DNA from: a phage
Reading direction: 5' to 3' (one strand)
Sequence record: PZ871096.1
Length of the DNA: 50,355 bases
Position 1 is the first letter of the stretch, and every line of letters starts with the position of its first letter. Below the pieces are notes generated by a model that saw only the letters and a list, made by a program, of their open reading frames with translations, had not been told where the DNA came from and searched no databases. Below are positions 6,693 to 27,618 of the stretch, piece after piece. The position numbers were made by a program, and so were the translations under genes.

Positions 6693-6741
6693 CTAATAGC
6701 ATAAAAAAACATTGCACGTTTAACAAAAAGTGCTATCATCT

Positions 6742-6768
6742 AGGCCGTTACATTTAACGGCCTTTTTT
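6742..6768 (+). terminator. intrinsic terminator immediately upstream of the capsid gene SD
   Basis: AGGCCGTTA-catt-TAACGGCCT 9-bp stem followed by T6. Confidence 0.65.
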
Positions 6769-6782
6769 ATGGAGGGAGCAAA

Positions 6783-7754
6783 ATGGCTAAAAAATATGAT
6801 GAACTAGATGCTACGATTGTAGCGAATCATTTGCAGATTCAGGGTGTTAAGACCGACGCTTCTGATATGGGTATTTGGACCGCTCAAGAGCTACACAAGA
6901 TCCGCTCTACCGCATACGAGAAAGAGTATCCGGCAGGTTCCGCGCTTCGCGTATTCCCTGTAACAAACGAGCTTTCTGATACTGACAAGACTTTCGAGTA
7001 TCAGACTTTTGATAAGGTTGGCTACGCGAAAATTATCGCCGACTACACCGATGATCTGCCGACTGTTGACGCGTTGATGACTTCTGAGTTTGGCAAAGTG
7101 TTCCGCCTGGGTAACGCTTATCTGATCTCCATTGATGAGATTAAAGCAGGTCAGCGAACTGGCAAGAGCCTGTCAACTCGCAAGGCTAACGCTGCGCAAA
7201 ATGCGCATGATCAGTTGATTAACTTCCTAGTGTTCAAAGGTTCCAAGCCTCATAAGATCGTTTCCGTTTTCGATCATCCTAACCTTACGAAAATTGCATC
7301 CAAAGGCTGGATGAGCAATGACGGCAATACCAAGTTCCCGCAGGTAGCAAGCGATGAACTGGAGGCCGCAATCGAAACGATCGAGGAAGTAACAAAAGGC
7401 CAGCACCGAGCGACTAACATCCTGATCCCGCCGTCCATGCGCAAAGTCCTGACGGTTCGAATGGAAAATACCACTGAAAGTTATCTGGAATACTTCCAGA
7501 AGCAAAACGGCGGTATCACTATCGACTCTATCGCAGAGCTTGAGGATATTGACGGCAAAGGTACGAAAGGTTGCTTGGTTTACGAAAAAGATCCAATGAA
7601 CATGAGCATTGAGATTCCAGAAGCGTTTAACATGCTTCCGGCGCAGCCAAAAGACCTTCATTTCAAGGTTCCTTGCACTTCCAAGTGTACTGGCCTTACG
7701 ATTTATCGTCCGTTTACGATGGTGCTTATTACTGGCTTGAAAAAAGCTGAGTAA
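6783..7754 (+). CDS. major capsid protein
   Basis: 323 aa; strong SD GGAGGG; size and position of a lambda-E/T1-type major head protein. Confidence 0.8.
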   Translation: MAKKYDELDATIVANHLQIQGVKTDASDMGIWTAQELHKIRSTAYEKEYPAGSALRVFPVTNELSDTDKTFEYQTFDKVGYAKIIADYTDDLPTVDALMTSEFGKVFRLGNAYLISIDEIKAGQRTGKSLSTRKANAAQNAHDQLINFLVFKGSKPHKIVSVFDHPNLTKIASKGWMSNDGNTKFPQVASDELEAAIETIEEVTKGQHRATNILIPPSMRKVLTVRMENTTESYLEYFQKQNGGITIDSIAELEDIDGKGTKGCLVYEKDPMNMSIEIPEAFNMLPAQPKDLHFKVPCTSKCTGLTIYRPFTMVLITGLKKAE

Positions 7755-7765
7755 TTAGATAACAT

Positions 7766-7794
7766 GGGGAGCCTTAAGGGTTCCCCTTTTTTTA
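7766..7794 (+). terminator. intrinsic terminator after capsid gene
   Basis: GGGGAGCCTT/AAGGGTTCCCC imperfect hairpin followed by T7. Confidence 0.6.
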
Positions 7795-7811
7795 TTTATG
7801 GAGTACACAAA

Positions 7812-8078
7812 ATGAGCAAGACTTTAAAACTTAAAGTAACTGGCGTTTGCATGATTATTATGGACGGTAAGCGTTATCATCCTGGTGATGAAATTGAAAT
7901 TGAATCCGATCGCATTAATGATTCCGCAGTTGAATACCTGATCGCTCGCGGTGATGTGGAAGTTAAAGACAATTCCGAAATTAACGAGCAAATCAAGGCG
8001 AAAGCGGAGAAGAAGCGCAAAAAAGATCCTACCGAGGGTAAGAGCCGCAAAGAGCTAGAGGATGGCGGCGAATATTAA
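7812..8078 (+). CDS. hypothetical protein (head-tail region)
   Basis: ORF-track frame 7764-8078; first ATG at 7812 after the terminator, SD GGAG; 88 aa. Confidence 0.5.
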
Positions 8079-8124
8079 TAATTGGGGCGCTTATGCGCCC
8101 TTTGTCACATCTGGAGAAAACAAA

Positions 8125-8544
8125 ATGGTAGATGAATTTTACACAGACGCTGAAATCGTTCAGCAAATCGTAAAGTTGGCCCCGCCAATGCAACAGGTTG
8201 ATCCCGATTTAATTGTGGCATGGATTGAGCTTGCTAAAGAGTTTGTTTGCAAAAAACGGTTTAAAAACTCATACCCGAAAGCGGTTGCGCTTTACACTCT
8301 TCACCTTATGACCTTAGACGGGGCAATGAAACAGGAAGGTGAAAGCGTAGAGAGCTACTCCCGCCGCGTTGCCTCGTTCACTCTGACTGGTGAGTTTAGT
8401 CAGACGTTTGATCGAATTTCTTCCGATACAAGCGGAAAGCAGATCCGACAAACGCCGTGGGGCAAAATGTACGAAGTGTTAAACCGTAAGCACGGTGGCG
8501 GCTTTGGCCTTGTGACTGGATTGCGCCGGAGATGCTGCCGATGA
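8125..8544 (+). CDS. head-tail connector protein (position-based)
   Basis: ORF-track frame 8062-8544; start moved to ATG 8125 (SD GGAG) because a GGGCGC/GCGCCC hairpin lies at 8085-8100 inside the longer frame. Confidence 0.5.
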
Positions 8545-8912
8545 ACTACAATGAGATTGCAAGAATGGCTACGGCTGGGATTAACTTTTTCAGCGACGCT
8601 AACGGTATGTTTAAGTGCATCACGCAGCAGGGAGGGGTTGAGATTATCGGAGGAGAGGAAGTTACCAAGCCGGAGATTTCAGTGATGATAAAGGGGCTTG
8701 TTAGATCTCCGAGGACTAGAGAGGTTGACGGTGAAACAATCCGAGTAACCGACAAGCTGGGAATATTCACCAATGAAACTGAGATCAAAAATGGTTATCA
8801 GATTGAAATTGATGGTGAACGTTATGTTGTCGTTGAAGCAAGACCAGTCAGGCAGACTAACATCACGGCGGCTTATCGTCCGATATTAAGGAGGATTGCT
8901 GTGCATGGCTGA
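8532..8912 (+). CDS. head-tail joining / head closure protein (position-based)
   Basis: 126 aa; overlaps previous gene; synteny. Confidence 0.45.
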
Positions 8913-9348
8913 TAATTATAAGATCAGGGAATTTCACGGTGATATAAGCAGGTGGATTGATTCAGTAAGCAGCGGCCTTGTTGATTGCGTTGAAATGTTC
9001 GCGACAAACGTCCACGAGGATCTTGTAAATCGCTCGCCAGTTGATACGGGCCGATATAAAGCCAACTGGCAGATAACAGCAAACAAGCCGCCGCTATATG
9101 CGCTCAACCAATACGATCGCGATGGTGGTAAAACCATTGCAGAAGGTAAGCGAGCAATATATGCAATCATGCGTGGCGGTGGCGCGGTGCGATCAATCTA
9201 TTTTTCAAACATGCTCATTTACGCCAACGCGCTTGAATACGGGCATTCAAAACAAGCGCCGTCCGGCGTACTTGGAATCGTGGCGGTAAAGCTGCGATCT
9301 TATATGGCTAAGGCAATAAAGGATTCGAGGGCAAAAAATGCACTATGA
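8905..9348 (+). CDS. tail-neck component (position-based)
   Basis: ATG 8905 preceded by AAGGAGGA; 147 aa. Confidence 0.45.
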   Translation: MADNYKIREFHGDISRWIDSVSSGLVDCVEMFATNVHEDLVNRSPVDTGRYKANWQITANKPPLYALNQYDRDGGKTIAEGKRAIYAIMRGGGAVRSIYFSNMLIYANALEYGHSKQAPSGVLGIVAVKLRSYMAKAIKDSRAKNAL

Positions 9349-9739
9349 TTTAATGTTGGCGGCAAGAAAGGCGCTGGCGGCTGAATATGAATCACGATTT
9401 AAGATAGCCTATGAAAACGTTGATTTTGTTCCGCCTGGAGATGGTTCTATGTGGTTAAAATTTAACTACATGGAAGCAGACACGGATCGCATATCTCTTG
9501 ATAGAAAATGTGTTTCTTATATCGGTTTGGTTCAGGTTGGGATTGTCATTCCTCCTGGCGGTGGCACTGATAAAGCGCGTTTGCTGGCTAAAGAGATTGC
9601 GAGATTTTTCTATGATGGTAGAATGATTGAAACTGGCTATATTAGCGAGGGGGCAAACGTCCACGCATTACTAAAAAGTGAAACAGGTTGGTTATTGCCG
9701 ATCCGTTTCAGTGTTAGGCTTGATACAAAGGAGGAATAA
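9338..9739 (+). CDS. tail completion / terminator-like protein (position-based)
   Basis: 133 aa immediately upstream of major tail protein gene. Confidence 0.45.
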   Translation: MHYDLMLAARKALAAEYESRFKIAYENVDFVPPGDGSMWLKFNYMEADTDRISLDRKCVSYIGLVQVGIVIPPGGGTDKARLLAKEIARFFYDGRMIETGYISEGANVHALLKSETGWLLPIRFSVRLDTKEE

Positions 9740-9741
9740 TC

Positions 9742-10404
9742 ATGCACTTGCCTAATGGTTCTCAAATTTTCATCGGCGTTAATATGGGTAAGCCAATTCA
9801 AGCTACTGATATTTCAAACGCTAAAGATCCGGTTTTTACTGTTAGTGATTCACAGCAGATCAAGAAGGGTGCTTATGTTCTGATTGAAACATCTCCTTGG
9901 GGTAAACTGGTTAGTCGTGTGTTGCGAGTAAAAGAAGTATCTGATAACGCAAGCGTAACTCTTGAAGGTGTAGACACAACCGATCAAAACGTGTTTCCGG
10001 CTGGTTCTAATACAGCAACCTTCCGAGAAGTAAAATCATGGGTAGAGATTCCTTGCGTACAGGATCTTGCGCAGGACGGCGGCGAGCAACAGTATTACAC
10101 TTATCAGTGTTTGGCTGACGACCAGGAGCAGCAGTTACCGACCTATAAGAGCGCCGTTTCTCTTACCTACACTTTCGCGCATGAATATGATAACCCGATT
10201 TATCCGATCTTGCGCGAGGCTGAGGAATCCGGCGACGTAACCGCTTTGCGTATGTACGTTCCGAAAGCTAAAGAGATGCGTTGCTGGGCTGGCGTATTGT
10301 CCTTTAATGACATTCCGCAAACCACTATGAACGAAATGGAAACTGTTTCCCTTTCCGTATCTCTGAAAGGTCGATTTACGCTCTTATCTTCCGACATCAA
10401 TTAA
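9742..10404 (+). CDS. major tail protein
   Basis: 220 aa; SD AAGGAGG; followed by strong terminator and then chaperone/tape-measure genes. Confidence 0.65.
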   Translation: MHLPNGSQIFIGVNMGKPIQATDISNAKDPVFTVSDSQQIKKGAYVLIETSPWGKLVSRVLRVKEVSDNASVTLEGVDTTDQNVFPAGSNTATFREVKSWVEIPCVQDLAQDGGEQQYYTYQCLADDQEQQLPTYKSAVSLTYTFAHEYDNPIYPILREAEESGDVTALRMYVPKAKEMRCWAGVLSFNDIPQTTMNEMETVSLSVSLKGRFTLLSSDIN

Positions 10405-10409
10405 AACAA

Positions 10410-10430
10410 GGGGCGTTGCGCCCCTTTTTT
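10410..10430 (+). terminator. intrinsic terminator after major tail gene
   Basis: GGGGCG-ttg-CGCCCC followed by T6. Confidence 0.7.
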
Positions 10431-10503
10431 CATTCCTGTAAAATCAATCTATCAAATAAATTAATTCCACTTTTAACAAAAAGTGCTATAAGGAGATCTT
10501 GAG

Positions 10504-10821
10504 ATGGCAAAGATGAAACTAACGTTAGGCCCACTGCCTGATTTTAAGCTGCCTGTTTCTTTCGTGCTTCCAAATGGTGATGAGCAAGTTATTGTTTTTA
10601 CCGTGCGCCACAAGAAGGCAAGCGAGATTCACGAACGATACACGGCAGAAAAGCCGATGAGCGACGTAGAAATGATCACCTTCCTTGCTTCCGGTTGGGA
10701 TCTGGAAGATGAATTTAACGAGGAAAACGTTGCTAAATTGCTGGATTATTACCCTTCTGCGTCATTATCGCTGACTGGTCATTATATGAAAGCACTTGCG
10801 GGGCAGCGGGTAAAAAACTAA
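10504..10821 (+). CDS. tail assembly chaperone (lambda G-like)
   Basis: 105 aa directly upstream of tape measure; ends ...GQRVKN*; contains slippery heptamer near its 3' end. Confidence 0.7.
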   Translation: MAKMKLTLGPLPDFKLPVSFVLPNGDEQVIVFTVRHKKASEIHERYTAEKPMSDVEMITFLASGWDLEDEFNEENVAKLLDYYPSASLSLTGHYMKALAGQRVKN

Positions 10822-11138
10822 AGCGGGCGGTTTACCTGTTTTACCTCAAGCCGCCAACTGACGCACAATTAGAGGCCGTCGGCCTATCCCGTTCAGACTA
10901 CGAAGGGGAGGAGCCGCCGGAGGTAATTTTTGATGAATCAATGTTTCAATCTTGGGATCTGTTTTGCGCTATGCAGACGCAATGGAGATCGACTAGCGGC
11001 AGTGTGTATGGGTTCGACTATAACGTTTTGCCTATGCTTTTTGACATTTACAAGATTGAGGATCGGGAGATGGCGCTAAATGATTTGCGCATCATGGAAC
11101 AAAAGGCGCTAGAAATGATTCATTCAAACAAAACATAA
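10504..11138 (+). CDS. tail assembly chaperone G-T fusion produced by programmed -1 ribosomal frameshift
   Basis: Slippery site A_AAA_AAC at 10812-10818 in the G frame; the -1 frame is open from 10818 to the stop at 11136-11138 (verified codon by codon, no stop), matching ORF 10941-11138. Confidence 0.7.
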
Positions 11139-11158
11139 GCGCCGCAAGGCGCTTTTTT
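11137..11158 (+). terminator. intrinsic terminator between chaperone and tape measure
   Basis: AAGCGCC-gcaa-GGCGCTT followed by T6. Confidence 0.6.
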
Positions 11159-11177
11159 AATATCTGGAGGTTTTAAA

Positions 11178-13859
11178 ATGGCTGAGAAATACGCTGGCCT
11201 AACGCTAGGCGTTGACGTGTCGCAGGTCAACAATGCTGTTAAATCATTGCAGCAATTCAAGAAGGCAAACGACGACGCAAAAAAAAGCGTTAATGAATTT
11301 GTTGATTCTGAGGTTGTGGCGCGACAGCAAGCTAAACAGTTTGCCGAAGAACTGGCGCGCCAGAAAGCAGAATTTAAGAAAATCCAGGAGTCAATTGATC
11401 CCACCGCGTCAAAGATGGATAAGCTGCGAAAAGCAGCGACACAGCTTGATGCGCTATGGAAAAAGGGCGTTGTTCCTGATGAGACTTTTTTTGAGCTTGG
11501 GGCAATTCTTGAGACACAGCAAAACAAGCTGATCGCAACCAAAAAGGCGATGACAGAGGAAGGCCGCGCGGCGCTTGAGGAATCAAAGAACAAGGCGCGT
11601 GCAGCGGAAGAGGCTAAAAAATTCATCCAGGCTTTGCGTGAGCAGGAAGAAGCAGCCGGAAAAAGCAAGTCTGAATTGCTGGAAATGAAAGCGGCACAGC
11701 TTGGAGTTAGCCAGGAGGCGTCGCCTTACATCGCAAGACTGAAAGAGCAGGAAAAGCAGATTCAAAAACTTGGGATTTCTACAGGCCAATACAATCAAGC
11801 AATGAAGCTATTGCCAATGCAGATCACAGACGTGGTGACTTCACTTGCTTCTGGTATGCCTGTTTGGCTGGTCGCAATCCAGCAGGGCGGACAGATTAAG
11901 GATTCTTTTGGTGGCGCATCCAATGCTTTAAAAGCGTTGCTATCTTTCCTGAATCCGGTAAACGTGGCTTTTGGCTTGCTTTCCGGCACGCTGGCAATTG
12001 CTGCATATAATGCCTACAAAACACAGACAGAGTTTGAGGCAATTAAAAAAACCGTTCAGGAAACAACTGGCTTGACTGGTGATTTTGCCGAAAAGATTGC
12101 TACAGGAATCCAGGAGCTTTCCGACAAGACGGGAGAAAGCGCAGAAGATCTGGCAAAGGCTTACATCACCACGAAAGACGGCGCGAGCGAGGCGATTAAA
12201 AAACTGGTTGACGTTGGCATGACTTATGATGATGCAAAAAAGAAAGTCAACGAGTACAAAGGCGCGTCTAGCTTTGTCAGCTTGAATAACGAAATTGCAA
12301 ACCACAAAAACAAAGTCCTTGAGTTGGGCGACTCGTGGTATGAAGTTTTGAAAGCGAAGCGTGATTACGCTTCCCCGTCCGGCGGCCTGTTAGGTAAAGA
12401 GCTTGGCTATGTTAATCCTATGCTTAAGTTTGCACTTAACACTTATGAAGACATTGGAAAGGTCGTAAAAGATGCGAATAAGGACATGGCTGAACGAGCG
12501 GAGCGAATCGACAAAGAAAACCTTGCCTTGAACAGAGTGAGAGCAGCGCAGGAGGCTTTAAACAAAGCCATTGAGGATCAGAAGGGCGTGGCGCGTTCGG
12601 CTGATGAAGAACTGAAAAAGCGTGCGGCTGAAAACGTGGAGTTCAGACGCAAAGAGCTTGAGGAGATCAAGAAGCAGGAGCAGAAAAAGAAAGAGGCTAA
12701 AGGCGGAATAGTTCGCGGCCCAACTGAGCAGCTTGATAAAGAGTTGTACGTTTTAAAAGCGCAACTGGAAACGCTTAAAGAGCATCGCACTGTTAACGAT
12801 GTTATTTCTCGCCAGCGTAAATCTTTATGGAGCATCGAAAAGCAGATCGAGATCCTGGAGGATGCGCAGAGCAAGCGTAAATTGACCGGAGCGGAACAGG
12901 CGCTACTAAATGAGCAAAAATCCGTTTTGGAAATGGCAAGGCAAAAGGCTGAATTAGGGGATCAGATTGTTTTGCAGGAGCGCAAAAACAAGCTGGAGCA
13001 AGATAGCATTAAGTTTATCCGTGAAACGCAGGCGGCTATTGATGTGCTTGGACTTAAGCAACTTGGCTACACTGAAAAGCAGATCGAGCGTGAGCTAGAG
13101 TTACGCAAGCTGCGCACCGACTACGAGGCGCAAGGAGGAAGCGTTAGCGATGAAGTTTTTCAGCAAATGGAGTCGAAACTTAAGCTGTATTACCAGACAC
13201 AAGACGAGGCGCAAAGCAACTGGTTAGCTGGAGCAAAGAACGCATGGGAGCTATTCGCGGAAGATGCAAACAATGCCTATGGTAATGTTCAGCAGATAGC
13301 AAGCGAGGCGTTAAACGGCCTTACAAACCAATTAGCGAATTTTATCGCTACTGGCAAGGCAAACTTTAAAGACTTCTCGACGGCTATCATCAAAATGATT
13401 ATTCAGATGATCACGAAAATGGTTGTCTTTAATGCTTTATCTGGCCTGATGGGCGGTCAAACCTGGACGATAGGGAGCTTGCTTAAGAACATTGGCGGAT
13501 TTGCTGGCGGTGGATACACTGGCGACGGCGGTAAGTATGAGCCAGCCGGAATTGTCCATAAAGGTGAATTTGTCATGACGAAGGAGGCGACGCAGCGTAT
13601 CGGGGTAGGCAACTTGTACCGCATGATGAGAGGCTATGCTAACGGCGGCGTTGTTGGTAGTTCCGGCTATACTGGCGGTGGCGCTGTCACTGGTGGAACA
13701 CCTCAGTTTAACATTGGTGGGATTGATGTTAGCATCAATAACGGCAGCGATCCGAAGGGCATCGAAACTGGCGTTAAGATGATCTTTACTGATATGATTA
13801 AACGTTCCTGTATGCAGGGCGGGGAGGTTTACGAATTTGTTATGAGCAAGCGAGGTTGA
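11178..13859 (+). CDS. tail tape measure protein
   Basis: 893 aa, long coiled-coil-rich protein with glycine-rich C-terminal region, downstream of G/G-T. Confidence 0.85.
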   Translation: MAEKYAGLTLGVDVSQVNNAVKSLQQFKKANDDAKKSVNEFVDSEVVARQQAKQFAEELARQKAEFKKIQESIDPTASKMDKLRKAATQLDALWKKGVVPDETFFELGAILETQQNKLIATKKAMTEEGRAALEESKNKARAAEEAKKFIQALREQEEAAGKSKSELLEMKAAQLGVSQEASPYIARLKEQEKQIQKLGISTGQYNQAMKLLPMQITDVVTSLASGMPVWLVAIQQGGQIKDSFGGASNALKALLSFLNPVNVAFGLLSGTLAIAAYNAYKTQTEFEAIKKTVQETTGLTGDFAEKIATGIQELSDKTGESAEDLAKAYITTKDGASEAIKKLVDVGMTYDDAKKKVNEYKGASSFVSLNNEIANHKNKVLELGDSWYEVLKAKRDYASPSGGLLGKELGYVNPMLKFALNTYEDIGKVVKDANKDMAERAERIDKENLALNRVRAAQEALNKAIEDQKGVARSADEELKKRAAENVEFRRKELEEIKKQEQKKKEAKGGIVRGPTEQLDKELYVLKAQLETLKEHRTVNDVISRQRKSLWSIEKQIEILEDAQSKRKLTGAEQALLNEQKSVLEMARQKAELGDQIVLQERKNKLEQDSIKFIRETQAAIDVLGLKQLGYTEKQIERELELRKLRTDYEAQGGSVSDEVFQQMESKLKLYYQTQDEAQSNWLAGAKNAWELFAEDANNAYGNVQQIASEALNGLTNQLANFIATGKANFKDFSTAIIKMIIQMITKMVVFNALSGLMGGQTWTIGSLLKNIGGFAGGGYTGDGGKYEPAGIVHKGEFVMTKEATQRIGVGNLYRMMRGYANGGVVGSSGYTGGGAVTGGTPQFNIGGIDVSINNGSDPKGIETGVKMIFTDMIKRSCMQGGEVYEFVMSKRG

Positions 13860-13861
13860 TA

Positions 13862-14212
13862 ATGAAGCTGGATCAGTTTAAGTGGTGTACGCAGGTTCAG
13901 AACGGCGGCGGGTCCATGACGTCATCAAATAACGATCGAGAGATTGCATTCGGTAACGGATACACACAGGTAGCATCTGGAGGCTTTAACACAATCCGGC
14001 GAGAGTTTAGCATTGTTTACGCTGGGCTTGATTACAGAGATGTTGTCAAGTTCCTGAATGAGCACAGGCTAAAACCTTTCTTGTGGATCATGCCAGATGG
14101 AAGCCCTGGATTGTTTAGGGTTAAAAGCGGTAGCGTCGGGCTTACCCCATTGTCGCCAACCGTTCAGGAAGTAAAAGCCACTTTTACGGAACAATTTACA
14201 TCAATGCAGTAA
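13862..14212 (+). CDS. minor tail protein (lambda M-like)
   Basis: ORF-track frame 13856-14212; first ATG at 13862; about 116 aa right after tape measure. Confidence 0.6.
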   Translation: MKLDQFKWCTQVQNGGGSMTSSNNDREIAFGNGYTQVASGGFNTIRREFSIVYAGLDYRDVVKFLNEHRLKPFLWIMPDGSPGLFRVKSGSVGLTPLSPTVQEVKATFTEQFTSMQ

Positions 14213-14216
14213 TTTA

Positions 14217-14243
14217 AAGCCGCCTTTGTGCGGCTTTTTTCTT
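14217..14243 (+). terminator. intrinsic terminator
   Basis: AGCCGC-ctttgt-GCGGCT followed by T6. Confidence 0.6.
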
Positions 14244-14274
14244 GATGTTACAATGAGCAAAAAGGAGGTAGAAA

Positions 14275-15036
14275 ATGGCTAATAAAGAATCAGGTAGAGT
14301 TGAATTTGAGAACTGCCTACAAAGTTTGTACCCAGGCGAGATTATAACGCTTGTAGAGATTGACGGGACGAAGTTCGGGGCAAATATTTACCGATTTCAC
14401 AATGAGAACATCTCTTATACTGCAGAAGAATTAATGCAAGCGCAGCAAACCGGAATCTTGCCGCCGAAAGATATTATTTTCCGTGGTGAGGTTTACGGAG
14501 CGCGGCCTTTTGGTGTGAGCGGGATTAACTTCACAAGTAACGGCAGGGCAGATAAGCCTCAGCTTATAGTGTCAAACCTTGACAGCAGGGTTAGCTCCAT
14601 GATCAGAAATTACAATGGCATGATGCAAGCAAGGGTGACTTTCTGGATCACGGCAAGGGAATTTATCGGAGAAGACGGAGCAATCAAAGATGGCGCTTAC
14701 AGAAAATTGGTTTATTACATTGAGCGCCCAAGCCAGTATAATAGAGAGGTGGCGAAATTTGACCTGACATCGCCTTACGATATGGATGGATTAATGATCC
14801 CGCCGCGCATCACTCAAAGCGTTTGCTATTGGGCGCAAAGGGGGTGGTACAGGAGCGGAAAGGGTTGCTCTTATAACGGATCGGCAATGTTCGATAAAGA
14901 CAATAAGCCAGTAACAGATCCATCACAAGACTATTGCGCCGGAACTGTAACGGCTTGCAAATTGAGGTTCGGTCAGCAAAACGAATTGGATTTCGGCGGT
15001 TGCGCGGTTGCGTCACTGCTACGGAGGAATCAATAA
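14275..15036 (+). CDS. minor tail protein (lambda L-like)
   Basis: 253 aa; SD AGGAGG; synteny M-L-K-I-J. Confidence 0.65.
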   Translation: MANKESGRVEFENCLQSLYPGEIITLVEIDGTKFGANIYRFHNENISYTAEELMQAQQTGILPPKDIIFRGEVYGARPFGVSGINFTSNGRADKPQLIVSNLDSRVSSMIRNYNGMMQARVTFWITAREFIGEDGAIKDGAYRKLVYYIERPSQYNREVAKFDLTSPYDMDGLMIPPRITQSVCYWAQRGWYRSGKGCSYNGSAMFDKDNKPVTDPSQDYCAGTVTACKLRFGQQNELDFGGCAVASLLRRNQ

Positions 15037-16347: not shown

Positions 16348-16352
16348 AAAAA

Positions 16353-16389: not shown

Positions 16390-16425
16390 GTGCAAACCAA
16401 GAAACAGCACAAAAGGTTAAAAGTC

Positions 16426-19400: not shown

Positions 19401-19851
19401 CGTTGATTCCGTTGGTGCTCAATATTCAATGAAGCTGGGCCTAACCTATAATGGTCAGCAGTACAGCGCCGGAATGGTTATGCAGTTAACGCAATCACCG
19501 CAAGGATTAATATCACAGATTCTGTTTGACGCTAACAGATTCGCGATCATGACAAGTTCTAGCGGCGGGGCATATACGCTTCCTTTCGTGGTTGAGAATA
19601 ACCAGGTTTTCATCAATAGCTTACTTGTGAAAGATGGTTCAATAACTAATGCCATGATTGGAAACTTTATTCAGTCAAACAATTTTGTTCAAAATCAGCA
19701 AGGTTGGAGGCTTGATAAAAACGGAACATTTGAAAACTACGGATCAACTCCAGGAGAGGGAGCTACTAAATTCACCAACGAAGGATTGAAGGTAAAAGAT
19801 GCAAACGGAGTATTGAGGGTTGAAGTCGGAAGGATTACCGGAAGCTGGTAA
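16426..19851 (+). CDS. central tail fibre / host specificity protein (lambda J-like)
   Basis: ORF-track frame 16375-19851; first ATG 16426; >1100 aa with fibronectin-III-like repeats and coiled-coil segment; last gene of tail module. Confidence 0.8.
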   Translation: MAKYMISGSKGGGQKPYVPKEMEDNLISINKIKVLLAVSDGECDPDFTLRDLYLDDVPVIASDGTVNYEGVTAEYRPGTQTQDYIQGFTDTSSEVTVARDITGDNPYVISVTNKNLSAVRIKILMPVGIKQEDNGDLVGVRVEYAVDMAVDGGSYSEVMRDVIDGKTRSGYDRSRRIDLPKFDERVLIRVKRLTPDSTSSKVTDKIKLQSYAEVVDAKFRYPLTGLVFVEFDSELFPTQIPNISIKKKWKIINVPSNYDPISREYHGSWDGTFKKAWSNNPAWVLYDLVTNQRYGLDQRELGIQIDKWSLYEAGVYCDQKVPDGKGGTEPRYLCDVVIQNQVEAYQLIRDICSIFRGMSFWNGESLSIVIDKPRDPSYVFTNENVINGDFQYTAASEKSMYTQCNVTFDDEQNMYQQDVEGVFDTEAALRFGYNPTSITAIGCTRRSEANRRGRWVLKTNLRSTTVNFSTGLEGMIPSIGDVIAIADNFQSSNLTLNLSGRVMEVSGLQVFVPFKVDARPGDFIIINKPDGKPVKRTISKVSADGKTIELNIGFGFDVKPDTVFAIDRTDLALQQYVVTTISKGDDENEFTFSITAVEYDPNKYDEIDYGVNIDDRPTSIVQPDVMAAPENVQISSYSRVVQGVSVETMVVSWDKVPYASLYEMQWRKGDGNWLNTPQTANKEIEVEGIYSGNYQVRVRSVSASGNTSPWSKIVTATLTGKVGEPGAPINLTASDNEVFGIRVKWGMPEGSGDTAYIELHQSPDGTVENSSLLTLIPYPQYEYWHSTLPAGKVVWYRIRSVDRIGNVSGWTDFVRGMASDDVESVLGDILDKIFDTEAGQEIKENAIDSANKIKDQAQSIIQNALANDSDVRVMKKENGKRKAEFRQSIQMIADETEARVTALTQLKAEFDEEITSEVTRLDQAIATESETRATAIEELKSQIGDDIQGQLTRVEEAIASETEARVSADTALTAKFGDLESALTEKLDSWAGVDSVGAQYSMKLGLTYNGQQYSAGMVMQLTQSPQGLISQILFDANRFAIMTSSSGGAYTLPFVVENNQVFINSLLVKDGSITNAMIGNFIQSNNFVQNQQGWRLDKNGTFENYGSTPGEGATKFTNEGLKVKDANGVLRVEVGRITGSW

Positions 19852-19880
19852 AAAAAGGGGGCGTAGCCCCCTTTAATTTT
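19851..19880. terminator. bidirectional intrinsic terminator at convergent junction
   Basis: A6-GGGGGC-gta-GCCCCC-TTTAATTTT. Confidence 0.75.
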
Positions 19881-20493
19881 AATCATAGTGTGATGCATTT
19901 ATAACCAAAACAGATGAAGCGGTGTAAATACCAACAGGTCCAGGGGTTTGTGCAACCTGCCTGGAAAAAGAGTAGATCCCGTTACCATACGCGGCAGCTT
20001 GAGACTCAAAAATCATAAATCCACCTAAAGCCGGATTAGGTACAGAGTTTAACGCTGTTAGTGATGGCATTATTGCGCAAGGGTAGCCCAGGTTAACATC
20101 AAACGCGATCCCGCTCACACCAACTTGCTTTGCATCAAGCGGCCTCATTTTTCCATGATAAACCATTTCACCATGAGCGTTATAAAACGCTATGCCGTGA
20201 CTACCTGGAGGAGTCACCATGTTACTAAAAGCATAAACAATAACCTCCCCTTGATTATCAGATCTATAAATTCTTATTGCGTGCCTTCCACCATTGTTAA
20301 ATTGCGTAAATGATATGTATGATTTAGCAGTCAATCTAACAAAGAAAAAACATACCCTATCAACAGGAATTGACGAAGTAAAAACGGTTCCGGTATTAGC
20401 AGATATTACGGCCCGATCAATTAGATTAACTGGAGTGAAATCTGGACTTAACCATAACGATCCGTCTGGTTTTTTTATGCTCATCCCGTACAT
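19879..20493 (-). CDS. hypothetical Gly/Ser/Tyr-rich protein
   Basis: ORF-track frame 19879-20505 (TTG start); first ATG at 20493 with GGGGGTGA SD; third gene of leftward lipoprotein operon. Confidence 0.5.
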   Translation of the reverse strand: MYGMSIKKPDGSLWLSPDFTPVNLIDRAVISANTGTVFTSSIPVDRVCFFFVRLTAKSYISFTQFNNGGRHAIRIYRSDNQGEVIVYAFSNMVTPPGSHGIAFYNAHGEMVYHGKMRPLDAKQVGVSGIAFDVNLGYPCAIMPSLTALNSVPNPALGGFMIFESQAAAYGNGIYSFSRQVAQTPGPVGIYTASSVLVINASHYD

Positions 20494-21074: not shown

Positions 21075-21117
21075 ACTATACACGATCCGACAAGCGGCGT
21101 TTAGCAAAAAGTGCTAC
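21075..21117 (-). promoter_or_regulatory. conserved-box promoter (variant box GTAGCACTTTTTGCTAAAC, 18-nt spacer, TATAGT)
   Basis: box at 21099-21117, -10-like hexamer at 21075-21080 (minus strand). Confidence 0.5.
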
Positions 21118-23827: not shown

Positions 23828-23858
23828 TAAAAATCCCCGCTTGTGCGGGGATTTTTTT
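23828..23858. terminator. bidirectional intrinsic terminator at convergent junction
   Basis: A6-TCCCCGC-ttgt-GCGGGGA-T7. Confidence 0.75.
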
Positions 23859-25995
23859 ATTCTGTATCTGTTGGATTGTTTATTAATTTCGCTACCGCTT
23901 TTTTTAGATCCTCTATCTCTTTCTCCATTTTCTCAATTTTGTTTCCCATGTAGACCATAGCGCAAGCCATATCAGCCATGATAACGTTATTGTCAAGAGC
24001 TAGTGTATCATCTGCTTTGTCAACCACAATCTGACGATCCACATATTCTTCACCTTCATCATTAACGCCTATAACATCTGCAAAAATGTCCCCTCCAGGT
24101 ATTAGCTTTACATATTCAGGATCTATTTTTAACAGATCCTGAGCTATCATCCCGAATCGCTGGATGTTGCTTCCATTGTATTTAAACATGGTAGGCAGCC
24201 ACTGCATAACGCGATCATAGCTTTCTTTTCCATCTGTATAAATTATATCGTGCTTTAAATCCCTGTCAGAGTTAGCTGCCTTTTGGAAAATGAAATTTCC
24301 ACTTGATGACCATGTAGTTATATCGTTTGATGCCGGATTAAACTGGAAATTGCAGAAAAAACCACCATCACCACGAAGCCTTAGAGAACAAAGTGGCCAT
24401 GCATTATTACCTTGTGCGATAAGACCCCAAGTTGCACGAATCGGGTATCCACCAGTTGATTGTGTAGCCCAAGATAACCCAGGACACCAGCCGCCATCAT
24501 TATTGGTTATAATTTCACCCCAAACAAGAGCATTACCCCAATAATTTGGATCGTCCCACCCCATTTGTTGAGTTTTTCCGGTGTATTGAGCAGAATGCGT
24601 TCTGCCGTCAGGGTAAAACTTGTGCATATAGGACTGTATCCCTGCTTGATACAATTCTATTCCAAAAGATTCAACGTGTGTATCTCCTCTTCTGATTAAA
24701 CCAGCGATAGCGTAATCGTCATACCAGTTGTAACGACTTACACCAGTCCATGTGTTGATTGGTGGACTTGGAATTGAAAACAATTGCGACGCATTTCGCT
24801 CATTCCCATCTACATAAATACCAGCCCCAGGAGCTAAGGAAATGCTTTTCGCTCCTGAAAAAGCACCATTTTCATTAAACTGATAATACTGTGATGCCCC
24901 ATTATGAAATACGCCTATTGTATGCTTTCCTACGCCTACTTGAGTTTCAAAATAAGACTGAGAAGATCCAATATCTTCACCTTGTGTATTCTTTAGTTTT
25001 GAATGGTATATACCTGCGTTTGCAGTAGTTGCATTTTCCGTTTCGTTTTCAACATTAAGACTCAAAAACTTTGGTGCATGTTTTTCGCCAAGTCCTATAT
25101 TGTTTCTGATGCCATTTGCGTCAATAGCTCCAGTGCCACCAGAAGAAATAGCTAAAGGAACAGTTTCAAATGACCCAGACCCTGATACATCCCTCTGGAA
25201 AACAAGAAGACCATCATTTCTGATAACGAGCCTATATTCTCTATTTCTAGAGTACAAGATAGTATGCACGTAATCCTGAAAAAATGAATCAATGCTAAGA
25301 GTACTGCGAGCTTCATCAATGTCAGAAAGATTTTTAAGGTTCTGATCCTTATGCAATAGATTTTCAGGATTTACCTGTTGCGCCCACTGGCGAGCTTCAT
25401 CACGCGCAGTTTCAGCGCCAGCCTTTGCATTATTTGCATCAACGGCATGATTTCCAGCAGCATCACGCGCCAGTTCAGCCTGATCGCGAGCACCGAAAGC
25501 CTCTTGTTTAATGGCTTCAGTTTCGGTTACAGCTGAATCTTTAATCTGTTGCGTTTGAGTTTTGATCGCGTCAGTGTCTGCTTTAATCTGGTTTGTTTCA
25601 GCAACAGCAGATTCCTTAACTTGATTCACCAGATCCTTTAAGCCATCCAAATCAAAATCTTTAAAAAACTCTATTGCTTCTGCAATTTCTGTTTCCTTGC
25701 TCTGGTAATAACGCAAAGTTTCCGCTACATCCTGCGCAAGCCCGTCAACCGTTAACGAGTCATGAAGCAAGATCAGGTAATTTGTCTTCTGGACTACCGC
25801 GCCGCCAGTAGTAATTGCGCGAATGCTTGTATCGCTAATCACCTCTGTGATCACGGCAGCTTGCAAAGGTTGAGTAAGAAAGAAAATAGTTGCACCTTGG
25901 CGAATCAATGTTAATTGCTCGCGCCATTTTGTGTCGTAACCAGTTACATAACCTTGAGCGTCCATAGACGCTTGGCCTTGTCTGTAAATCGCCAT
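23857..25995 (-). CDS. tail fibre protein with C-terminal intramolecular chaperone (peptidase S74-like) domain
   Basis: ORF-track frame 23857-26019; ATG 25995 with AGGAGG SD; coiled-coil N-terminal part; C-terminal [11 protein letters not shown]...[15 protein letters not shown] matches the autoproteolytic chaperone motif of T5 L-shaped fibre and endosialidases. Confidence 0.7.
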
Positions 25996-26012
25996 TTGTA
26001 AAATCCTCCTAA

Positions 26013-26033
26013 ATAGCACTTTTTGCTAATGAC
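26013..26033 (+). promoter_or_regulatory. conserved box in inverted orientation immediately upstream of tail fibre SD
   Basis: ATAGCACTTTTTGCTAATGAC on + strand; on the minus strand GCAAAAAGTGCTAT is followed directly by AGGAGG and the ATG. Confidence 0.4.
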
Positions 26034-26060
26034 AATGCAGATAATAGCATTTTCAAATGC

Positions 26061-26085
26061 AAAAAAAAACCCCGCATAAGCGGGG
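26061..26085 (-). terminator. intrinsic terminator after primase gene
   Basis: minus strand CCCCGC-ttat-GCGGGG followed by T9. Confidence 0.7.
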
Positions 26086-26101
26086 TAATACTAGCGGAGT
26101 T

Positions 26102-27031
26102 TTATAGCAGTGATTCGGGCTTGTAGAGTTTTCTTTCTACGCCCTGTTTAAAATTATCGTTAACAGGCATCATTATGTCAAGACCTCTTTCCTCTGCCGA
26201 GATTATCACATCACGATCATCTTTCCGGCAGACTACACGCATTCTTCTTTCTCCTTTATATCTATGCGCAACCATTTCAAGATTTGAAGGAGTAAAGCAA
26301 GCCCACACCTCTTGACCAGTTGATAAATGAACATGCTGGGAGTCAACCCAATCAAGGCACAAATAGATCGTCTTATCTGTGCTACCTGTTTTAACAACAG
26401 ATCCGCGCGTGTAGTCGCGAGCTAAAAACCAATCCTTTCCATCCTCATCAATGAAAAGCACGTTACACATTTCATCATCCAGCCCGTCATCATGCACCAG
26501 GTGACAAGGTAGCGCGTGAATGTATCGACCATCCTTGACGCCGCAATCATAATAACAATCTTCCGGCGGATATATCCCCTCATAAACGCTTAAGGGTGTG
26601 CGATCGAATTTTAATGTTTTTGCCATCACTTTTTCGCAGCATTCATGACTTGCCTGTTTCCCGAACGAGTAACCAGAAGAACGCGAAGCGCGCTTGTTTG
26701 CTCTGATCCTGTAATCCTGCGGCACTTTTCCGAGGAAGCGGCCCAAAATGTTGATGGCCTCGCTGTAAGGTTCGCCAGTTAATTTCATTAACCAACCGAT
26801 CCCTGTGTCGTTACCGCATACGTTGCAGATAGCGCCGCCGTCGCCCTCTTCATTTAGCTTATCAGTCCATCTAAAACGATCCTTGCCGCCGCAGTGTGGG
26901 CAAGGCTGATGCTTTTTGTTGAAAACATCGCTATGCAGTCCGCAAATGCTTTGTAGTGCTTCACGCCATAACCCCTTCATATATGGCAAAACGTCTTCTT
27001 TCTGATAGGTCATAAAGTTTTCAGTATTCAT
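26102..27031 (-). CDS. DNA primase (zinc-finger containing)
   Basis: ORF-track frame 26102-27109; start moved to ATG 27031 because a terminator hairpin (27041-27080) lies inside the longer frame; CPHCGG...CNVCG zinc-binding motif. Confidence 0.55.
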   Translation of the reverse strand: MNTENFMTYQKEDVLPYMKGLWREALQSICGLHSDVFNKKHQPCPHCGGKDRFRWTDKLNEEGDGGAICNVCGNDTGIGWLMKLTGEPYSEAINILGRFLGKVPQDYRIRANKRASRSSGYSFGKQASHECCEKVMAKTLKFDRTPLSVYEGIYPPEDCYYDCGVKDGRYIHALPCHLVHDDGLDDEMCNVLFIDEDGKDWFLARDYTRGSVVKTGSTDKTIYLCLDWVDSQHVHLSTGQEVWACFTPSNLEMVAHRYKGERRMRVVCRKDDRDVIISAEERGLDIMMPVNDNFKQGVERKLYKPESLL

Positions 27032-27040
27032 GGCAAACCC

Positions 27041-27080
27041 TAATAAAAAAGCCCAGCAAATATTATCATTTCGCTGGGCC
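27041..27080 (-). terminator. intrinsic terminator between regulator and primase genes
   Basis: minus strand GCCCAGC ... GCTGGGC stem followed by T6. Confidence 0.55.
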
Positions 27081-27086
27081 TTATCA

Positions 27087-27563
27087 TTAGCTATTCGTGC
27101 TGTTATCACCTTTGTAGAATCGTCCGCCTGGTTCGTAGTCTGAATTTTTGACTACGCGCAACATTTCGTATTTGTCGCAACGGGTAGTAAGAGGCTTGCC
27201 GTTAGAATCAAACCGCAGATCTGGACGACAAAACGAGGCGCGGTATCCTTTGCATCCATTATATTTGTAGTCGTTATGCACCTTTTGTGCTCCAGCGGCT
27301 GAAATCATACCACGCTTTCGCCACTGGTTAACGACTTGCTGAGATACGCGCAGACGTCGGGCCATAGCAGGAACACCGCCGTAATACTCGATCAGAATGT
27401 CAAGGCGAGATTTCAGGCTTGCTTTTACCTCATCTCGCAGGATAAGAAATCCGGTTCGGTGTTTTCGTGGCTTTTTGTCTTTACCTCGTCGCGTTCCGTT
27501 GTTACCGTTAATAGTGCGCTTGTCGATCTCACCAGTAGATACTGCAATTCGTGCATCTTTCAT
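27087..27563 (-). CDS. HTH DNA-binding protein (Cro/CI / YdaS-like helix-turn-helix)
   Basis: 158 aa; GGVPAMARRLRVSQQVVNQWRKRGMIS HTH signature; GAGGTGA SD; divergent from helicase gene. Confidence 0.55.
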   Translation of the reverse strand: MKDARIAVSTGEIDKRTINGNNGTRRGKDKKPRKHRTGFLILRDEVKASLKSRLDILIEYYGGVPAMARRLRVSQQVVNQWRKRGMISAAGAQKVHNDYKYNGCKGYRASFCRPDLRFDSNGKPLTTRCDKYEMLRVVKNSDYEPGGRFYKGDNSTNS

Positions 27564-27574
27564 CTAGTCACCTC

Positions 27575-27618
27575 ATAGCATTTTTTGTTAAAACAGTTTA
27601 TTGTAATGAGTCTATTAT
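27575..27618 (+). promoter_or_regulatory. conserved-box promoter for helicase operon; box also abuts the SD of the divergent regulator gene
   Basis: ATAGCATTTTTTGTTAAAAC (27575-27594), 18-nt spacer, TATTAT (27613-27618). Confidence 0.5.

Follow-up and report, generated by a model that had tools for sequence, protein, structure and literature searches.

A repeated box lies reversed in or just past conserved promoters of a T1-like phage, suggesting that one DNA site may turn early genes on and restrain late ones

Features of the locus

The window (the whole stretch of DNA analysed, 50,355 nucleotides) is a near-complete genome of a Warwickvirus, a T1-like coliphage of the Drexlerviridae. It contains a 17-base box, TTAACAAAAAGTGCTAT, with 19 matches at up to three mismatches across the whole window against 0.32 expected, a number reached by none of 100 shuffled windows. 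Three more copies, at 46936, 27087 and 16404, are picked up with a degenerate consensus. Boxes are found at the portal, major capsid protein (MCP), tail assembly chaperone (TAC), J tail-tip and lateral tail-fibre genes, and between the divergent helicase and regulator genes (Table 1). The copies that are inverted relative to the adjacent gene are found at matching junctions between genes in T1, TLS, Rtp and dozens more Drexlerviridae. The box is best explained as an asymmetric cis-regulatory site common to the whole phage family. The start sites near 6746 (+), 10451 (+), 10439 (-), 26034 (-) and 27607 (-) are all predicted from hexamers.

Table 1. Box copies, associated promoter elements and the candidate regulator gene
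Feature	Position	Strand	Details
Portal site	2093-2145	+	direct box 2093-2109, 7 nt, TATAAT 2117-2122, 1 nt, hairpin 2124-2145
Predicted major-capsid promoter	6712-6739	+	TTGCAC-16 nt-TGcTATCAT, from sequence and relatives
Inverted box, capsid	6720-6736	+	0 mismatches
Terminator-like hairpin and T-run	6742-6763	+	between capsid promoter and SD
Predicted sense promoter, chaperone and tape measure	10416-10444	+	TTGCGC-17-TAAAAT
Antisense extended -10, chaperone	10446-10454	-	TGaTAGATT, exactly 21 nt from box 10473
Inverted box, chaperone	10473-10489	- when read as box	0 mismatches as a plus-strand match; ATAGCACTTTTTGTTAA on the minus strand, pointing leftward
J tail-tip site	16384-16420	+	TATAAT 16384-16389, 14 nt, degenerate direct box 16404-16420
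Inverted box, lateral tail-fibre gene	26013-26029	-	1 mismatch
Sense extended -10, tail fibre	26041-26049	-	TGcTATTAT, 11 nt upstream of box
Cro-like HTH regulator	27087-27563	-	158 aa, T1 gp23 family; candidate box binder
Box, helicase promoter orientation	27575-27591	+	1 mismatch as a minus-strand match; inverted relative to regulator gene (-)
Box promoter of helicase gene	27575-27618	+	box, 21-nt gap, -10 TATTAT 27613-27618
Regulator sigma70 promoter	27614-27642	-	TTTAAA (27642-27637), 17 nt, TATAAT (27619-27614)

Early promoters

About 15 early genes per genome have the box exactly 21 nt 5' of a -10 element that is often extended, as seen in the sequence and by comparison. The box of these promoters is at -50 to -34, and they lack a usable -35 at normal spacing. 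Among 84 box promoters in five genomes the offset is 21 nt in 76, 20 nt in five and 22 nt in three, and the TGn of an extended -10 is present in 36. Matches to a -35 at 16-18 nt spacing are no better in these 84 promoters than at random positions. Half of the boxes contain TTGCTAA. Stem-loops are strongly enriched, often with the -10 within the loop, and the early units are modular, with a box, a stem-loop, a -10 and a conserved start region. All real boxes that lack a -10 at this offset belong to late genes (portal, TerS, MCP, J and tail fibre), and among these both orientations are represented.

Late and regulator promoters

The predicted MCP promoter, close to the sigma70 consensus, has its -35 (TTGCAC) at 6712-6717, TG at 6731-6732 and its -10 (TATCAT) at 6734-6739, downstream of an A-tract at 6703-6709. 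Of the box, 14 nt fall in the spacer and the other 3 begin the -10 hexamer. About 54 distinct sequences, with MCPs as little as 54% identical, share this layout; the -35 TTG, the spacing of exactly 16 nt, TG(c/a) and TAT..T are invariant, and the flanks and hairpin sequences diverge around them. Column information is highest at the TTG, the box and the last T of the hexamer. The hairpin has a 9-bp stem followed by TTTTTATGGA (fold of 6700-6800, -23.4 kcal/mol, z = -3.4), and in most relatives it starts 2-4 nt past the -10. The predicted +1 near 6746 is inside its 5' arm. No antisense -10 was found at the MCP copies in the relatives' loci compared.

At TAC, the GCTAT of the box directly abuts AAGGAG at 10490, and the box is kept with 0-1 mismatch in Tempevirinae and Tunavirinae. 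The sense -35 (10416-10421) lies within the major-tail terminator, and the -10 (10439-10444) is back-to-back with the antisense -10, 1 nt apart, placing the box at about +23 to +39 of the predicted sense transcript. Among relatives, the sense TAnAAT has the information pattern 6,8,1,7,8,7. About 22 distinct relatives were compared; all have TAnnnT as the antisense hexamer at offset 21, and almost all have TGn before it (pattern of the antisense -10, 8,8,3,9,7,2,3,2,8). A box-type promoter is predicted to fire leftward from a +1 near 10439 into a bidirectional terminator at 10408-10426, and the antisense RNA of about 40 nt that would result has a predicted fold of -15.8 kcal/mol. The Rtp junction has a direct box promoter for an inserted gene.

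The tail-fibre gene (minus strand) begins at ATG 25995, not at GTG 26019 of the ORF list, with its SD at 26005-26009, and the junction reads GCTAT-tt-AGGAGG. The box has 0 mismatches in most lineages and is at about +5 to +21 of the predicted transcript. The sense -10 is just downstream of the primase terminator (26069-26086), and every lineage has a strong sense -10 here, 5-11 nt before the box, in the forms TGcTATAAT, TGcTAGAAT, TGcTAAAAT, TGcTACAAT, TATAAT or TGaTAAAAT, the last with TTGCAA at 17 nt. None of the tail-fibre copies in the lineages compared has TAnnnT at antisense offset 21. TLS has lost the box both here and at TAC but keeps the sense elements (CATAAT and TTGCGT-17-TAATAT, respectively); the promoters are therefore the primary feature, to which the box adds regulation.

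The box at 27575 is the helicase promoter copy in a compact divergent region, and its contact with the regulator SD is explained by this arrangement. The helicase ATG (27651) is 76 nt downstream of the box, and the box promoter is kept in nearly all of 66 loci. On the regulator side GCTAT abuts GAGGTGA, with the box at about +16 to +32 of the predicted regulator mRNA and next to the SD (27574-27568). The regulator promoter has 10 of 12 consensus positions, and its -10 overlaps that of the helicase on the opposite strand. Equivalent promoters in relatives are TTGACT-17-TATCAT (TLS group), TTGAAT-17-TATAAT (T1 group) and TTAACC-16-TATAAT; the TLS annotation is P57 (PMC11447400).

Other late genes carry direct boxes without a -10 at the offset. 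At the portal gene the box covers the -35 region of the promoter and the hairpin is terminator-like; Tempevirinae loci have a direct box at the equivalent position. The J box, ACAGCACAAAAGGTTAA, includes the SD of the gene (ATG 16426), and the arrangement is the same in T1 (25021) and TLS (24908, listed as DR8). In T1, TerS has a direct box of this kind at 8362.

The first-pass annotation had described inverted boxes next to ribosome-binding sites at the capsid, chaperone, tail-fibre and regulator genes. All four copies are present where claimed, with 0-1 mismatch, and the box is 0-2 nt from the SD at all but the capsid gene, where a hairpin intervenes. It had also noted that, reading toward the gene, the copies lack a -10 at the fixed offset; this holds as worded and is uninformative. 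Boxes 10473 and 27575 do have a -10 at that offset in their own direction. Its view of the copies as promoter-less elements of the ribosome-binding site did not hold up, as all four sites carry sense-direction promoter elements. The boxes lie within, or 5-30 nt 3' of, conserved sense sigma70-type promoters, and their distance to the SD differs between lineages, from none to about 10 nt. Read this way, the "inverted" copies are parts of predicted late-gene and regulator promoters and not RBS elements.

The candidate regulator

The protein encoded at 27087-27563 has a relative in 825 phage records and is a core gene product of the family. It matches PHROG 2856 (1.6e-72), and its Pfam matches to YdaS/P22_Cro are under the curated cut-off. 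The AlphaFold2 model (pLDDT 85) has its best PDB matches to the Xfaso1 and N15 Cro proteins. Its Cro-like fold, core status and own canonical promoter make it a plausible box-binding factor. Against this role, its predicted recognition helix differs markedly among the window, T1, TLS and Vibrio phage Vc1, in which the box is identical, and Vc1 has no box at the regulator site. The invariant residues are in a disordered N-terminal arm, not in the predicted recognition helix.

A dual role for the box

We favor, at roughly even odds (about 0.5), a model in which one box-binding factor activates early promoters and represses the late and regulator promoters. A single trans-acting factor, most likely the Cro-like regulator, would recognize the box and would itself be expressed from a canonical host promoter. 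Bound at about -42, it would recruit RNA polymerase to early and middle promoters. The strong late promoters and the regulator's own would be held down by the factor sitting in the spacer or over +1, or by its committing polymerase to an opposing promoter. At the chaperone and regulator genes the leader box would also drive a second, divergent box promoter, with a -10 that adjoins or overlaps that of the sense promoter, giving an orphan antisense transcript at the former and the helicase mRNA at the latter. The earlier proposal of one site with two roles survives in spirit: the box is placed like an activating element at early genes and like an operator at late genes and the regulator. Orientation is not what separates the roles, since late genes bear direct boxes too (portal 2093, J 16404 and its T1 and TLS counterparts, T1 TerS 8362). 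Two further points weigh against the model: late expression would need a separate release mechanism, and the 43% of early promoters with an extended -10 might work alone.

It is also conceivable, if unlikely, that no dedicated factor exists and host RNA polymerase itself reads the box, using TTGnTA as a -35-like element out of its normal place and contacting ATAGCAC upstream of it. Late copies would then act solely by polymerase competition, through divergent or antisense promoters or through non-productive binding that damps the overlapping sense promoter. Phages of E. coli, Klebsiella, Salmonella and Vibrio share an invariant box, which fits a highly conserved reader (RNA polymerase, for instance) better than it fits a regulator with a variable recognition helix. 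In our reading TTG is the best-conserved part of a -35 and ATAGCAC is at the position that a proximal UP subsite would take relative to it; the GC-containing ATAGCAC is, however, unlike the A/T-rich UP consensus. The spacing from TTGnTA to the -10 is 22 nt in 76 of the 84 promoters, which exceeds the range that sigma70 holoenzyme can span. The TAC and regulator sites are true overlapping pairs of opposed promoters, as competition would have it, whereas the MCP and tail-fibre copies lack an antisense -10, making competition alone weak there.

An action of the inverted copies as RNA is improbable. An A-rich box by the SD would modulate translation or mRNA stability, or the leader box would pair with complementary direct-box sequence in read-through early transcripts. 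The predicted mRNA leaders of the tail fibre, TAC, J and the regulator do contain the box, at 0-10 nt from the SD, and a direct and an inverted box could pair perfectly along 17 nt. The capsid box, however, is upstream of the predicted +1, late leaders have both orientations (J is direct), and the distance to the SD is variable. Leaders are no more stably folded than shuffled sequence (z -0.03 and -0.78), and an Rfam search found no family.

We give as little weight to the first-pass suggestion that the box is an orientation-specific, stoperator-like roadblock or antitermination site at structural genes. The TLS authors proposed a stoperator as well (PMC11447400). Boxes adjoin terminators at the portal, MCP, TAC and tail-fibre genes, and read-through control is plausible given the intrinsic terminators abutting SDs throughout the late operon. 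Yet the box precedes the hairpin at MCP and follows the terminator at TAC and the tail fibre, late copies are mixed in orientation relative to transcription, and conserved sense promoters account for the positions without read-through. In our reading, likeness to boxA is confined to UUUAACAA. The presence of both orientations, together with the Rfam result, leaves an antitermination or RNA reading unsupported. Finally, the late copies are very improbable as functionless relics of a mobile, PeSL-like promoter cassette inserted either way by recombination: the modular early units and the Rtp TAC junction fit this, but subfamilies with diverged flanks still carry copies, at 0-1 mismatch, at matching junctions, and the antisense -10 has been retained selectively at TAC and is just as selectively missing from MCP and the tail fibre.

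Comparison with known systems

Lambda CII, a small early HTH protein, activates promoters without a good -35 (pRE, pI and paQ), and paQ fires antisense, delaying late gene expression. By analogy, early activation at the -35 region by a small HTH protein resembles the dual-role model, and paQ would be the counterpart of the chaperone antisense promoter. The CII site (TTGC-N6-TTGC) straddles the -35, whereas the box (ATAGCAC-N3-TTGnTAA) is centred near -42. The present phage is, unlike lambda, virulent, and the Pfam and PDB comparisons revealed no sequence relationship between the regulator and CII.

T4 middle promoters, which depend on sigma appropriation by AsiA and MotA, likewise combine a host sigma70 -10 with a phage-specific upstream box replacing the -35. 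TTGCTAA calls to mind TGCTT, the core of the MotA box; MotA boxes have their centre at -30, and the present box, near -42, is roughly one helical turn farther upstream. The annotation of this genome includes no homologue of MotA or AsiA. PeSL cassettes of T4-type phages are also repeated intergenic modules of an early promoter and a stem-loop, but differ in sequence and part order, the -10 here often being within the loop.

Intergenic direct repeats of 21 nt, aaATAGCACnnnTTGnTAAAA, have been published for TLS and other T1-like phages, with early copies about 76 nt upstream of start codons (PMC11447400). They are the same sequence element as the box, in the same phage family. TLS DR7, DR8 and DR11 correspond to the MCP, J and helicase/regulator copies of this genome, and DR7 is given on the opposite strand without comment (PMC11447400). 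The fixed 21-nt link to a -10, the late promoters that overlap boxes and the chaperone antisense promoter are not described there. The TLS authors suggested a comparison with the L5 stoperators (PMC11447400). In mycobacteriophage L5 these are sites bound by one phage regulator, gp71, and are likewise asymmetric, multicopy and spread genome-wide in short intergenic regions. L5 stoperators, however, all face one way relative to transcription, and the phage in which they block elongation is temperate. The box occurs in both orientations and is, in most copies, linked to a -10 at a set distance. The annotation of this genome includes neither an integrase nor an immunity repressor. The reversed boxes in or just past conserved promoters suggest that one DNA site may turn early genes on and restrain late ones.

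Genome context

The window covers nearly the whole genome of a Warwickvirus (Drexlerviridae, Tempevirinae, T1-like). It shares ~97% identity with the Escherichia phages atuna and FritzSarasin, and its start and orientation match those of FritzSarasin. Members of the Drexlerviridae, the T1-like phages, rank with the most common coliphages and Klebsiella phages; they have a use in therapy, and laboratories fear them as contaminants. To our knowledge they have no RNA polymerase or sigma factor of their own. Two arms of small early genes lie downstream of the helicase gene.

Genes of the window and the σ70 promoters predicted for two of them
Feature	Position	Strand	Remarks
TerS	1		
TerL			after TerS, before portal
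Portal	2167		
Predicted major capsid (MCP) promoter	TTGCAC 6712-6717, 16 nt, TGc, TATCAT 6734-6739	+	conserved layout
Major capsid	6783-7754		
Major tail	9742-10404		
Tape-measure chaperone	10504		
J-like tip	16426		
Lateral tail fibre	23857-25995	-	
Primase		-	between tail fibre and regulator
Transcriptional regulator	27087-27563	-	
Predicted canonical promoter of the regulator	27642-27614	-	TTTAAA-17-TATAAT
Helicase	27651	+	

The box is a published element

The box, a 17-base asymmetric repeat, is already in the literature with its function left open. It appears in the 2024 re-annotation of phage TLS under the name of a 21-nt direct repeat, aaATAGCACnnnTTGnTAAAA. That paper counts 18 intergenic copies, placed 'in the direction of transcription' some 76 nt before start codons, and reports the repeat from T1, Rtp and Rogue1 as well (PMC11447400). 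Stoperators, enhancer-binding sites and UP elements are discussed there, and the function is named an open question. The supplementary table places DR7, which is the capsid copy, on the opposite strand without comment, and gives only three canonical σ70 promoters, one of which, P57, is that of the regulator gene (PMC11447400). Our literature search found no transcript mapping for Drexlerviridae and no discussion of the repeat outside the TLS paper. What is new here is the promoter grammar, the presence of the box inside conserved late promoters, and an antisense promoter.

With up to three mismatches allowed, TTAACAAAAAGTGCTAT occurs 19 times in the window against 0.32 expected, and a degenerate consensus adds three further copies. 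The published consensus also recovers box elements in T1, TLS, Rtp and the Vibrio phage Vc1. The first-pass annotation had singled out four inverted copies, at 6720 (capsid), 10473 (tail-assembly chaperone, TAC), 26013 (tail fibre) and 27575 (regulator), and these are indeed present with 0-1 mismatch to the consensus, which makes them members of the Drexlerviridae repeat, and are conserved across the family. It had also rightly described an SD 0-2 nt after the box at the chaperone, tail-fibre and regulator genes, and a hairpin with a T-run (6742-6763) between box and SD at the capsid gene. The box-to-SD distance is short and varies from 0 to 10 nt across lineages, which looks like a consequence of short leaders. 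The placement published for the repeat is seen only for 27575, which points toward the helicase gene at exactly 76 nt, while 6720, 10473 and 26013 are opposed to the adjacent gene, with its ATG 14-46 nt away.

Promoters of the early genes

Boxes oriented as ATAGCACnnnTTGnTAA were scanned in the window, T1, TLS, Rtp and Vc1, and a box promoter was defined by a TAnnnT, CATAAT or GATAAT hexamer at 21 (+/-1) nt from the box, read in the box's own direction. Across the five genomes, 84 boxes have such a -10-like hexamer, at an offset of 21 in 76, of 20 in five and of 22 in three. The commonest hexamers are TATAGT, CATAAT, TATAAT and TATTAT, and 36 of the 84 promoters have an extended TGn motif. Matches to TTGACA at 16-18 nt spacing are no better in these 84 promoters than at random positions, and the TTGTTA of the box was rejected as a canonical -35, the spacer to the -10 being 22 nt in 76 of the 84, which is too long. 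Since the -10 lies at a fixed offset, the box occupies -50 to -34, and the fact that a Vibrio phage and three subfamilies all keep this distance points to a contact with RNA polymerase that is stereospecific. From this we infer an activating role for the box in the early promoters, where its centre lies near -42.

Between the box and about +14, inverted repeats are strongly enriched (mean best perfect stem 5.96 bp, vs 4.02 +/- 0.105 in shuffles). A GC-rich inverted repeat of this kind is found in box promoters at, for example, 31135-31185, 41781-41830 and 45063-45110 of the window, and also in T1, TLS, Rtp and Vc1; of the 61 promoters whose stem reaches 5 bp or more, 26 have the -10 hexamer in the loop. 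What is conserved is the dyad rather than its sequence, since the stems of different copies are not alike. Downstream of the -10, most early box promoters of every genome examined share a conserved start region, CATCGAAAC(G)A, with the consensus cCtcAt.gAAA..AAa at about +1 to +15 (e.g. 41833-41845).

The primase box promoter (27029-27103, minus strand) has a degenerate box, ACAGCACGAATAGCTAA, that overlaps the stop codon of the regulator. Its -10, TAATAT, is at offset 21 in the loop of the terminator hairpin of the regulator gene, which a T-run follows. The promoter is thus built into the terminator, with the new start expected in the 3' arm. Another copy, at 21101-21117 (GTAGCACTTTTTGCTAA, leftward), has TATAGT at offset 22 and serves three small minus-strand genes (21049-19879) between the tail and recombination genes.

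Copies at the late genes

Where a genuine box of the window, T1, TLS or Rtp has no -10 at the fixed offset, the gene that follows is portal, TerS, capsid, J or tail fibre; the sole other exception is the left-end copy of T1, at position 104. The capsid and tail-fibre copies are inverted, and those of portal (2093), J (16404; also in T1 and TLS) and the TerS gene of T1 are direct, so orientation is not the variable that separates early from late use. The earlier proposal of an orientation-specific action of one site at the RBS finds no support on this point, and its other part, dual use of one site, is plausible. Among the four copies singled out, a box-type -10 is present at 27575 (TATTAT) and, antisense, at 10473 (TGaTAGATT); the hexamers at 6720 (TATTAG) and 26013 (TTTCAA) fall outside the definition.

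Sense σ70 promoters were sought as a TTGnnn -35-like hexamer and/or a TGn together with a TAnnnT -10, at 16-18 nt spacing and kept in relatives. Predicted promoters of this form are found for the MCP (TTGCAC-16-TGcTATCAT), tail-fibre (TGcTATTAT), TAC (TTGCGC-17-TAAAAT) and regulator (TTTAAA-17-TATAAT) genes. The first-pass annotation had taken the inverted boxes for promoter-less elements linked to the RBS; judged from the comparison of relatives, they are parts of conserved, predicted promoters instead.

The capsid copy was compared in 80 loci, with capsid protein identity down to 54%. The inverted box stands 60-80 nt before the capsid ATG in nearly all of them, and about 54 distinct sequences have one layout of A-tract, TTG -35, exactly 16 nt, TG(c/a) and TAT..T. 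The -35 varies (TTGACG, TTGACC, TTGCAC, TTGAAC and others), as does the -10 (TATCAT, TATTAT, TATATT, TATGAT, TATTCT), and column information peaks at the A-tract, the TTG, the box and the last T of the hexamer, with variable flanks and hairpin sequence. The inverted box here appears to be the spacer and first three -10 bases of a near-consensus σ70 promoter. The hairpin starts only 2-4 nt after the hexamer, which places the predicted start (~6746) within its 5' arm, and it would be a full terminator for transcripts from upstream and not for those begun at the MCP promoter. No antisense promoter is present at this copy, because the offset-21 hexamer is never TAnnnT in any lineage.

The chaperone copy has an antisense hexamer at the exact 21-nt offset that is always TAnnnT in the relatives compared, nearly always with TGn before it (TGaTAGATT, TGgTAGAGT, TGaTAGCAT, TGaTAGGAT, TGaTACGAT, TGaTAAGAT and others), and its column information has the pattern expected for an extended -10. 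This copy appears to be a genuine box promoter that fires leftward, away from the chaperone gene. In the window the leftward transcript meets a bidirectional terminator at 10408-10426, and the RNA would be ~40 nt; the leftward T-run of T1 is poor, so that there the transcript would run on antisense into the major-tail gene. A conserved sense hexamer, TA(A/C/G)AAT, lies 1 nt from the antisense -10 and is preceded at 17 nt by TTGCGC or TTGCAC, inside the terminator hairpin. The two form the predicted promoter of the chaperone and tape-measure genes, with the box at about +23 to +39 of the predicted leader. The sense and antisense promoters are back-to-back and cannot be occupied simultaneously. 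TLS keeps the sense promoter and has no box, and Rtp has at this junction a direct box promoter that serves an inserted gene. A sense promoter made from the end of the box (TGcTATAAG) was rejected, since the final T is absent, the sequence is not conserved (TATCAA in T1) and the start would come after the SD.

The tail-fibre copy was compared in 66 loci fetched around the regulator gene. Most lineages have a 0-mismatch inverted box between primase and tail fibre, and every one of these has the primase terminator followed by a strong sense -10 (TGcTATAAT, TGcTATTAT, TGcTAGAAT, TGcTAAAAT, TGcTACAAT or TATAAT; the variant TGaTAAAAT has TTGCAA 17 nt upstream). The order is -10, 5-11 nt, box, 2-10 nt, SD. 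On the predicted transcript the box thus spans about +1 to +20, a position like that of lacO1, the classical operator placement. An antisense promoter was rejected here too, the offset-21 hexamer never being TAnnnT in any lineage. TLS has lost the box and kept CATAAT. The tail-fibre gene does not use the first start codon of its longest ORF (23857-26019, minus strand), a GTG at 26019 that falls within the box; as in relatives, it begins with the ATG at 25995, which stands 9 nt beyond GGAGG.

The boxes of late sites are dispensable in some lineages: TLS is without them at the chaperone and tail-fibre genes (TLS 18700-18790, 34070-34245), and Vc1 has none before the chaperone or tail-fibre gene or at the regulator site. 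Nearly every genome examined has the capsid copy. At the right end of the window, after a terminator and running on to TerS at 1, an extended -10 (TGgTATAAT, 50319-50327) is followed by TCTAACAAAAGGAGG (region to 50349). The match of this sequence to an inverted box, here fused with the SD of TerS, is confined to the TTAACAAAAAG half; in T1 the equivalent place is taken by a full direct box (8362). Within 1-20000 an intrinsic terminator precedes almost every late gene block, its T-run leading straight into the next SD (e.g. 5863-5886, 7766-7786, 11137-11154, 14216-14237, 16354-16370). Late expression must therefore use read-through, antitermination or small post-terminator promoters, for which TACAAT at ~14241 is a candidate.

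The regulator site and the candidate protein

The 27575 copy, with TATTAT at 27613-27618, the exact offset, and 76 nt between box and ATG, is an ordinary helicase promoter. The -10 of the regulator's predicted promoter overlaps the helicase -10 on the other strand, and the regulator leader has the box directly before its SD. This geometry is conserved, as TTGACT-17-TATCAT in the TLS group and TTGAAT-17-TATAAT in the T1 group. The site is the same module as that of the chaperone gene, but the box-driven transcript here encodes a protein.

The regulator, of the T1 gp23 family, has 158 aa, matches PHROG 2856, and has YdaS and P22_Cro Pfam matches below the curated cut-off. It is found only on contigs of Drexlerviridae genome size, and 825 phage records encode a relative. 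The AlphaFold2 model (pLDDT 85) has an all-alpha Cro-like domain and an extra C-terminal part, and helices 64-71 and 75-84 are predicted to form a helix-turn-helix; the closest structures are Xfaso1 Cro (TM-score to target 0.73) and N15 Cro. The C-terminal part has three conserved cysteines and an FD.NGK motif, and no structural match. The most conserved part of the protein is the N-terminal arm, not the HTH. Invariant residues (D14, R16, N19-N22, R26, D29, R33 and a few more) lie within this predicted-disordered, basic arm, DKRxxNGNNGTRRGxDKKxR (residues 1-35).

On circumstantial evidence the regulator is a plausible binder of the box, perhaps through its N-terminal arm. The putative recognition helix differs among the window, T1, TLS and Vc1 although the boxes are identical, which casts indirect doubt on specific binding by this protein; co-variation of regulator and box is not visible, because the box is invariant while the helix varies. 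Alternatively, the box may be read by host polymerase alone, or by another early protein.

Comparison with known systems

An explanation of the late copies as functionless relics was set aside. An RNA-level role was set aside as well, since an Rfam scan of the window gave no family and the leaders of the TAC and tail-fibre genes fold no better than shuffled sequence. BoxA, the RNA element of Nus-dependent antitermination, is GCUCUUUAACAA-like and has one orientation, whereas the box shares only UUUAACAA with it, lacks the GCUC and occurs in both orientations. All copies of an L5-type stoperator have one orientation, and the late copies of the box run both ways, direct at portal and J and inverted at MCP, TAC and tail fibre. 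The lambda CII site is TTGC-N6-TTGC flanking the -35, and the box is TAGC-N5-TTG(C/T) centred near -42. Compared with a σ54 promoter (TGGCAC-N5-TTGC, GG at -24, GC at -12), the box (TAGCAC-N3-TTG(C/T)) has no GG and a spacer 2 nt short, and it is followed at 21 nt by a σ70-type -10. Resemblance to a MotA box fails, on reading of the sequence, on spacing or core bases. A host-regulon scan with ATAGCACNNNTTGNTAAAA gave, among the matches listed, scattered single matches in unrelated taxa, as chance predicts.

Proposed mechanism and significance

We propose, with a probability of about 0.35, that T1-like phages time their gene expression through the 17-bp box as a single master switch. One family-specific factor, probably the gp23-family regulator with its invariant N-terminal arm, would recognise the box and activate -35-less early and middle promoters from about -42. 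The same factor would silence the near-consensus, host-type promoters of the capsid, tail-fibre, chaperone/tape-measure, J and portal genes; in the most economical model it would occlude promoters when the box falls within the spacer, over the -35 (portal) or at +1 to +30. It may also repress by committing polymerase to an opposing promoter, as with the orphan antisense promoter against the tail genes, and the regulator would silence its own promoter and so autoregulate. The step from sequence to mechanism is one that we infer, and the model leaves out how the late promoters are released.

The analysis makes the question of repeat function specific: it predicts start sites, five late promoters with the box in operator positions and an antisense promoter, proposes that box, 21 nt and -10 form a promoter grammar, and names a candidate protein. 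If the model holds, the elements would be compact, portable on/off promoter parts for E. coli. If true, it would answer the published question on the function of the 21-nt repeat, and would explain the timing from early to late expression in a phage family that lacks its own RNA polymerase and sigma factor.
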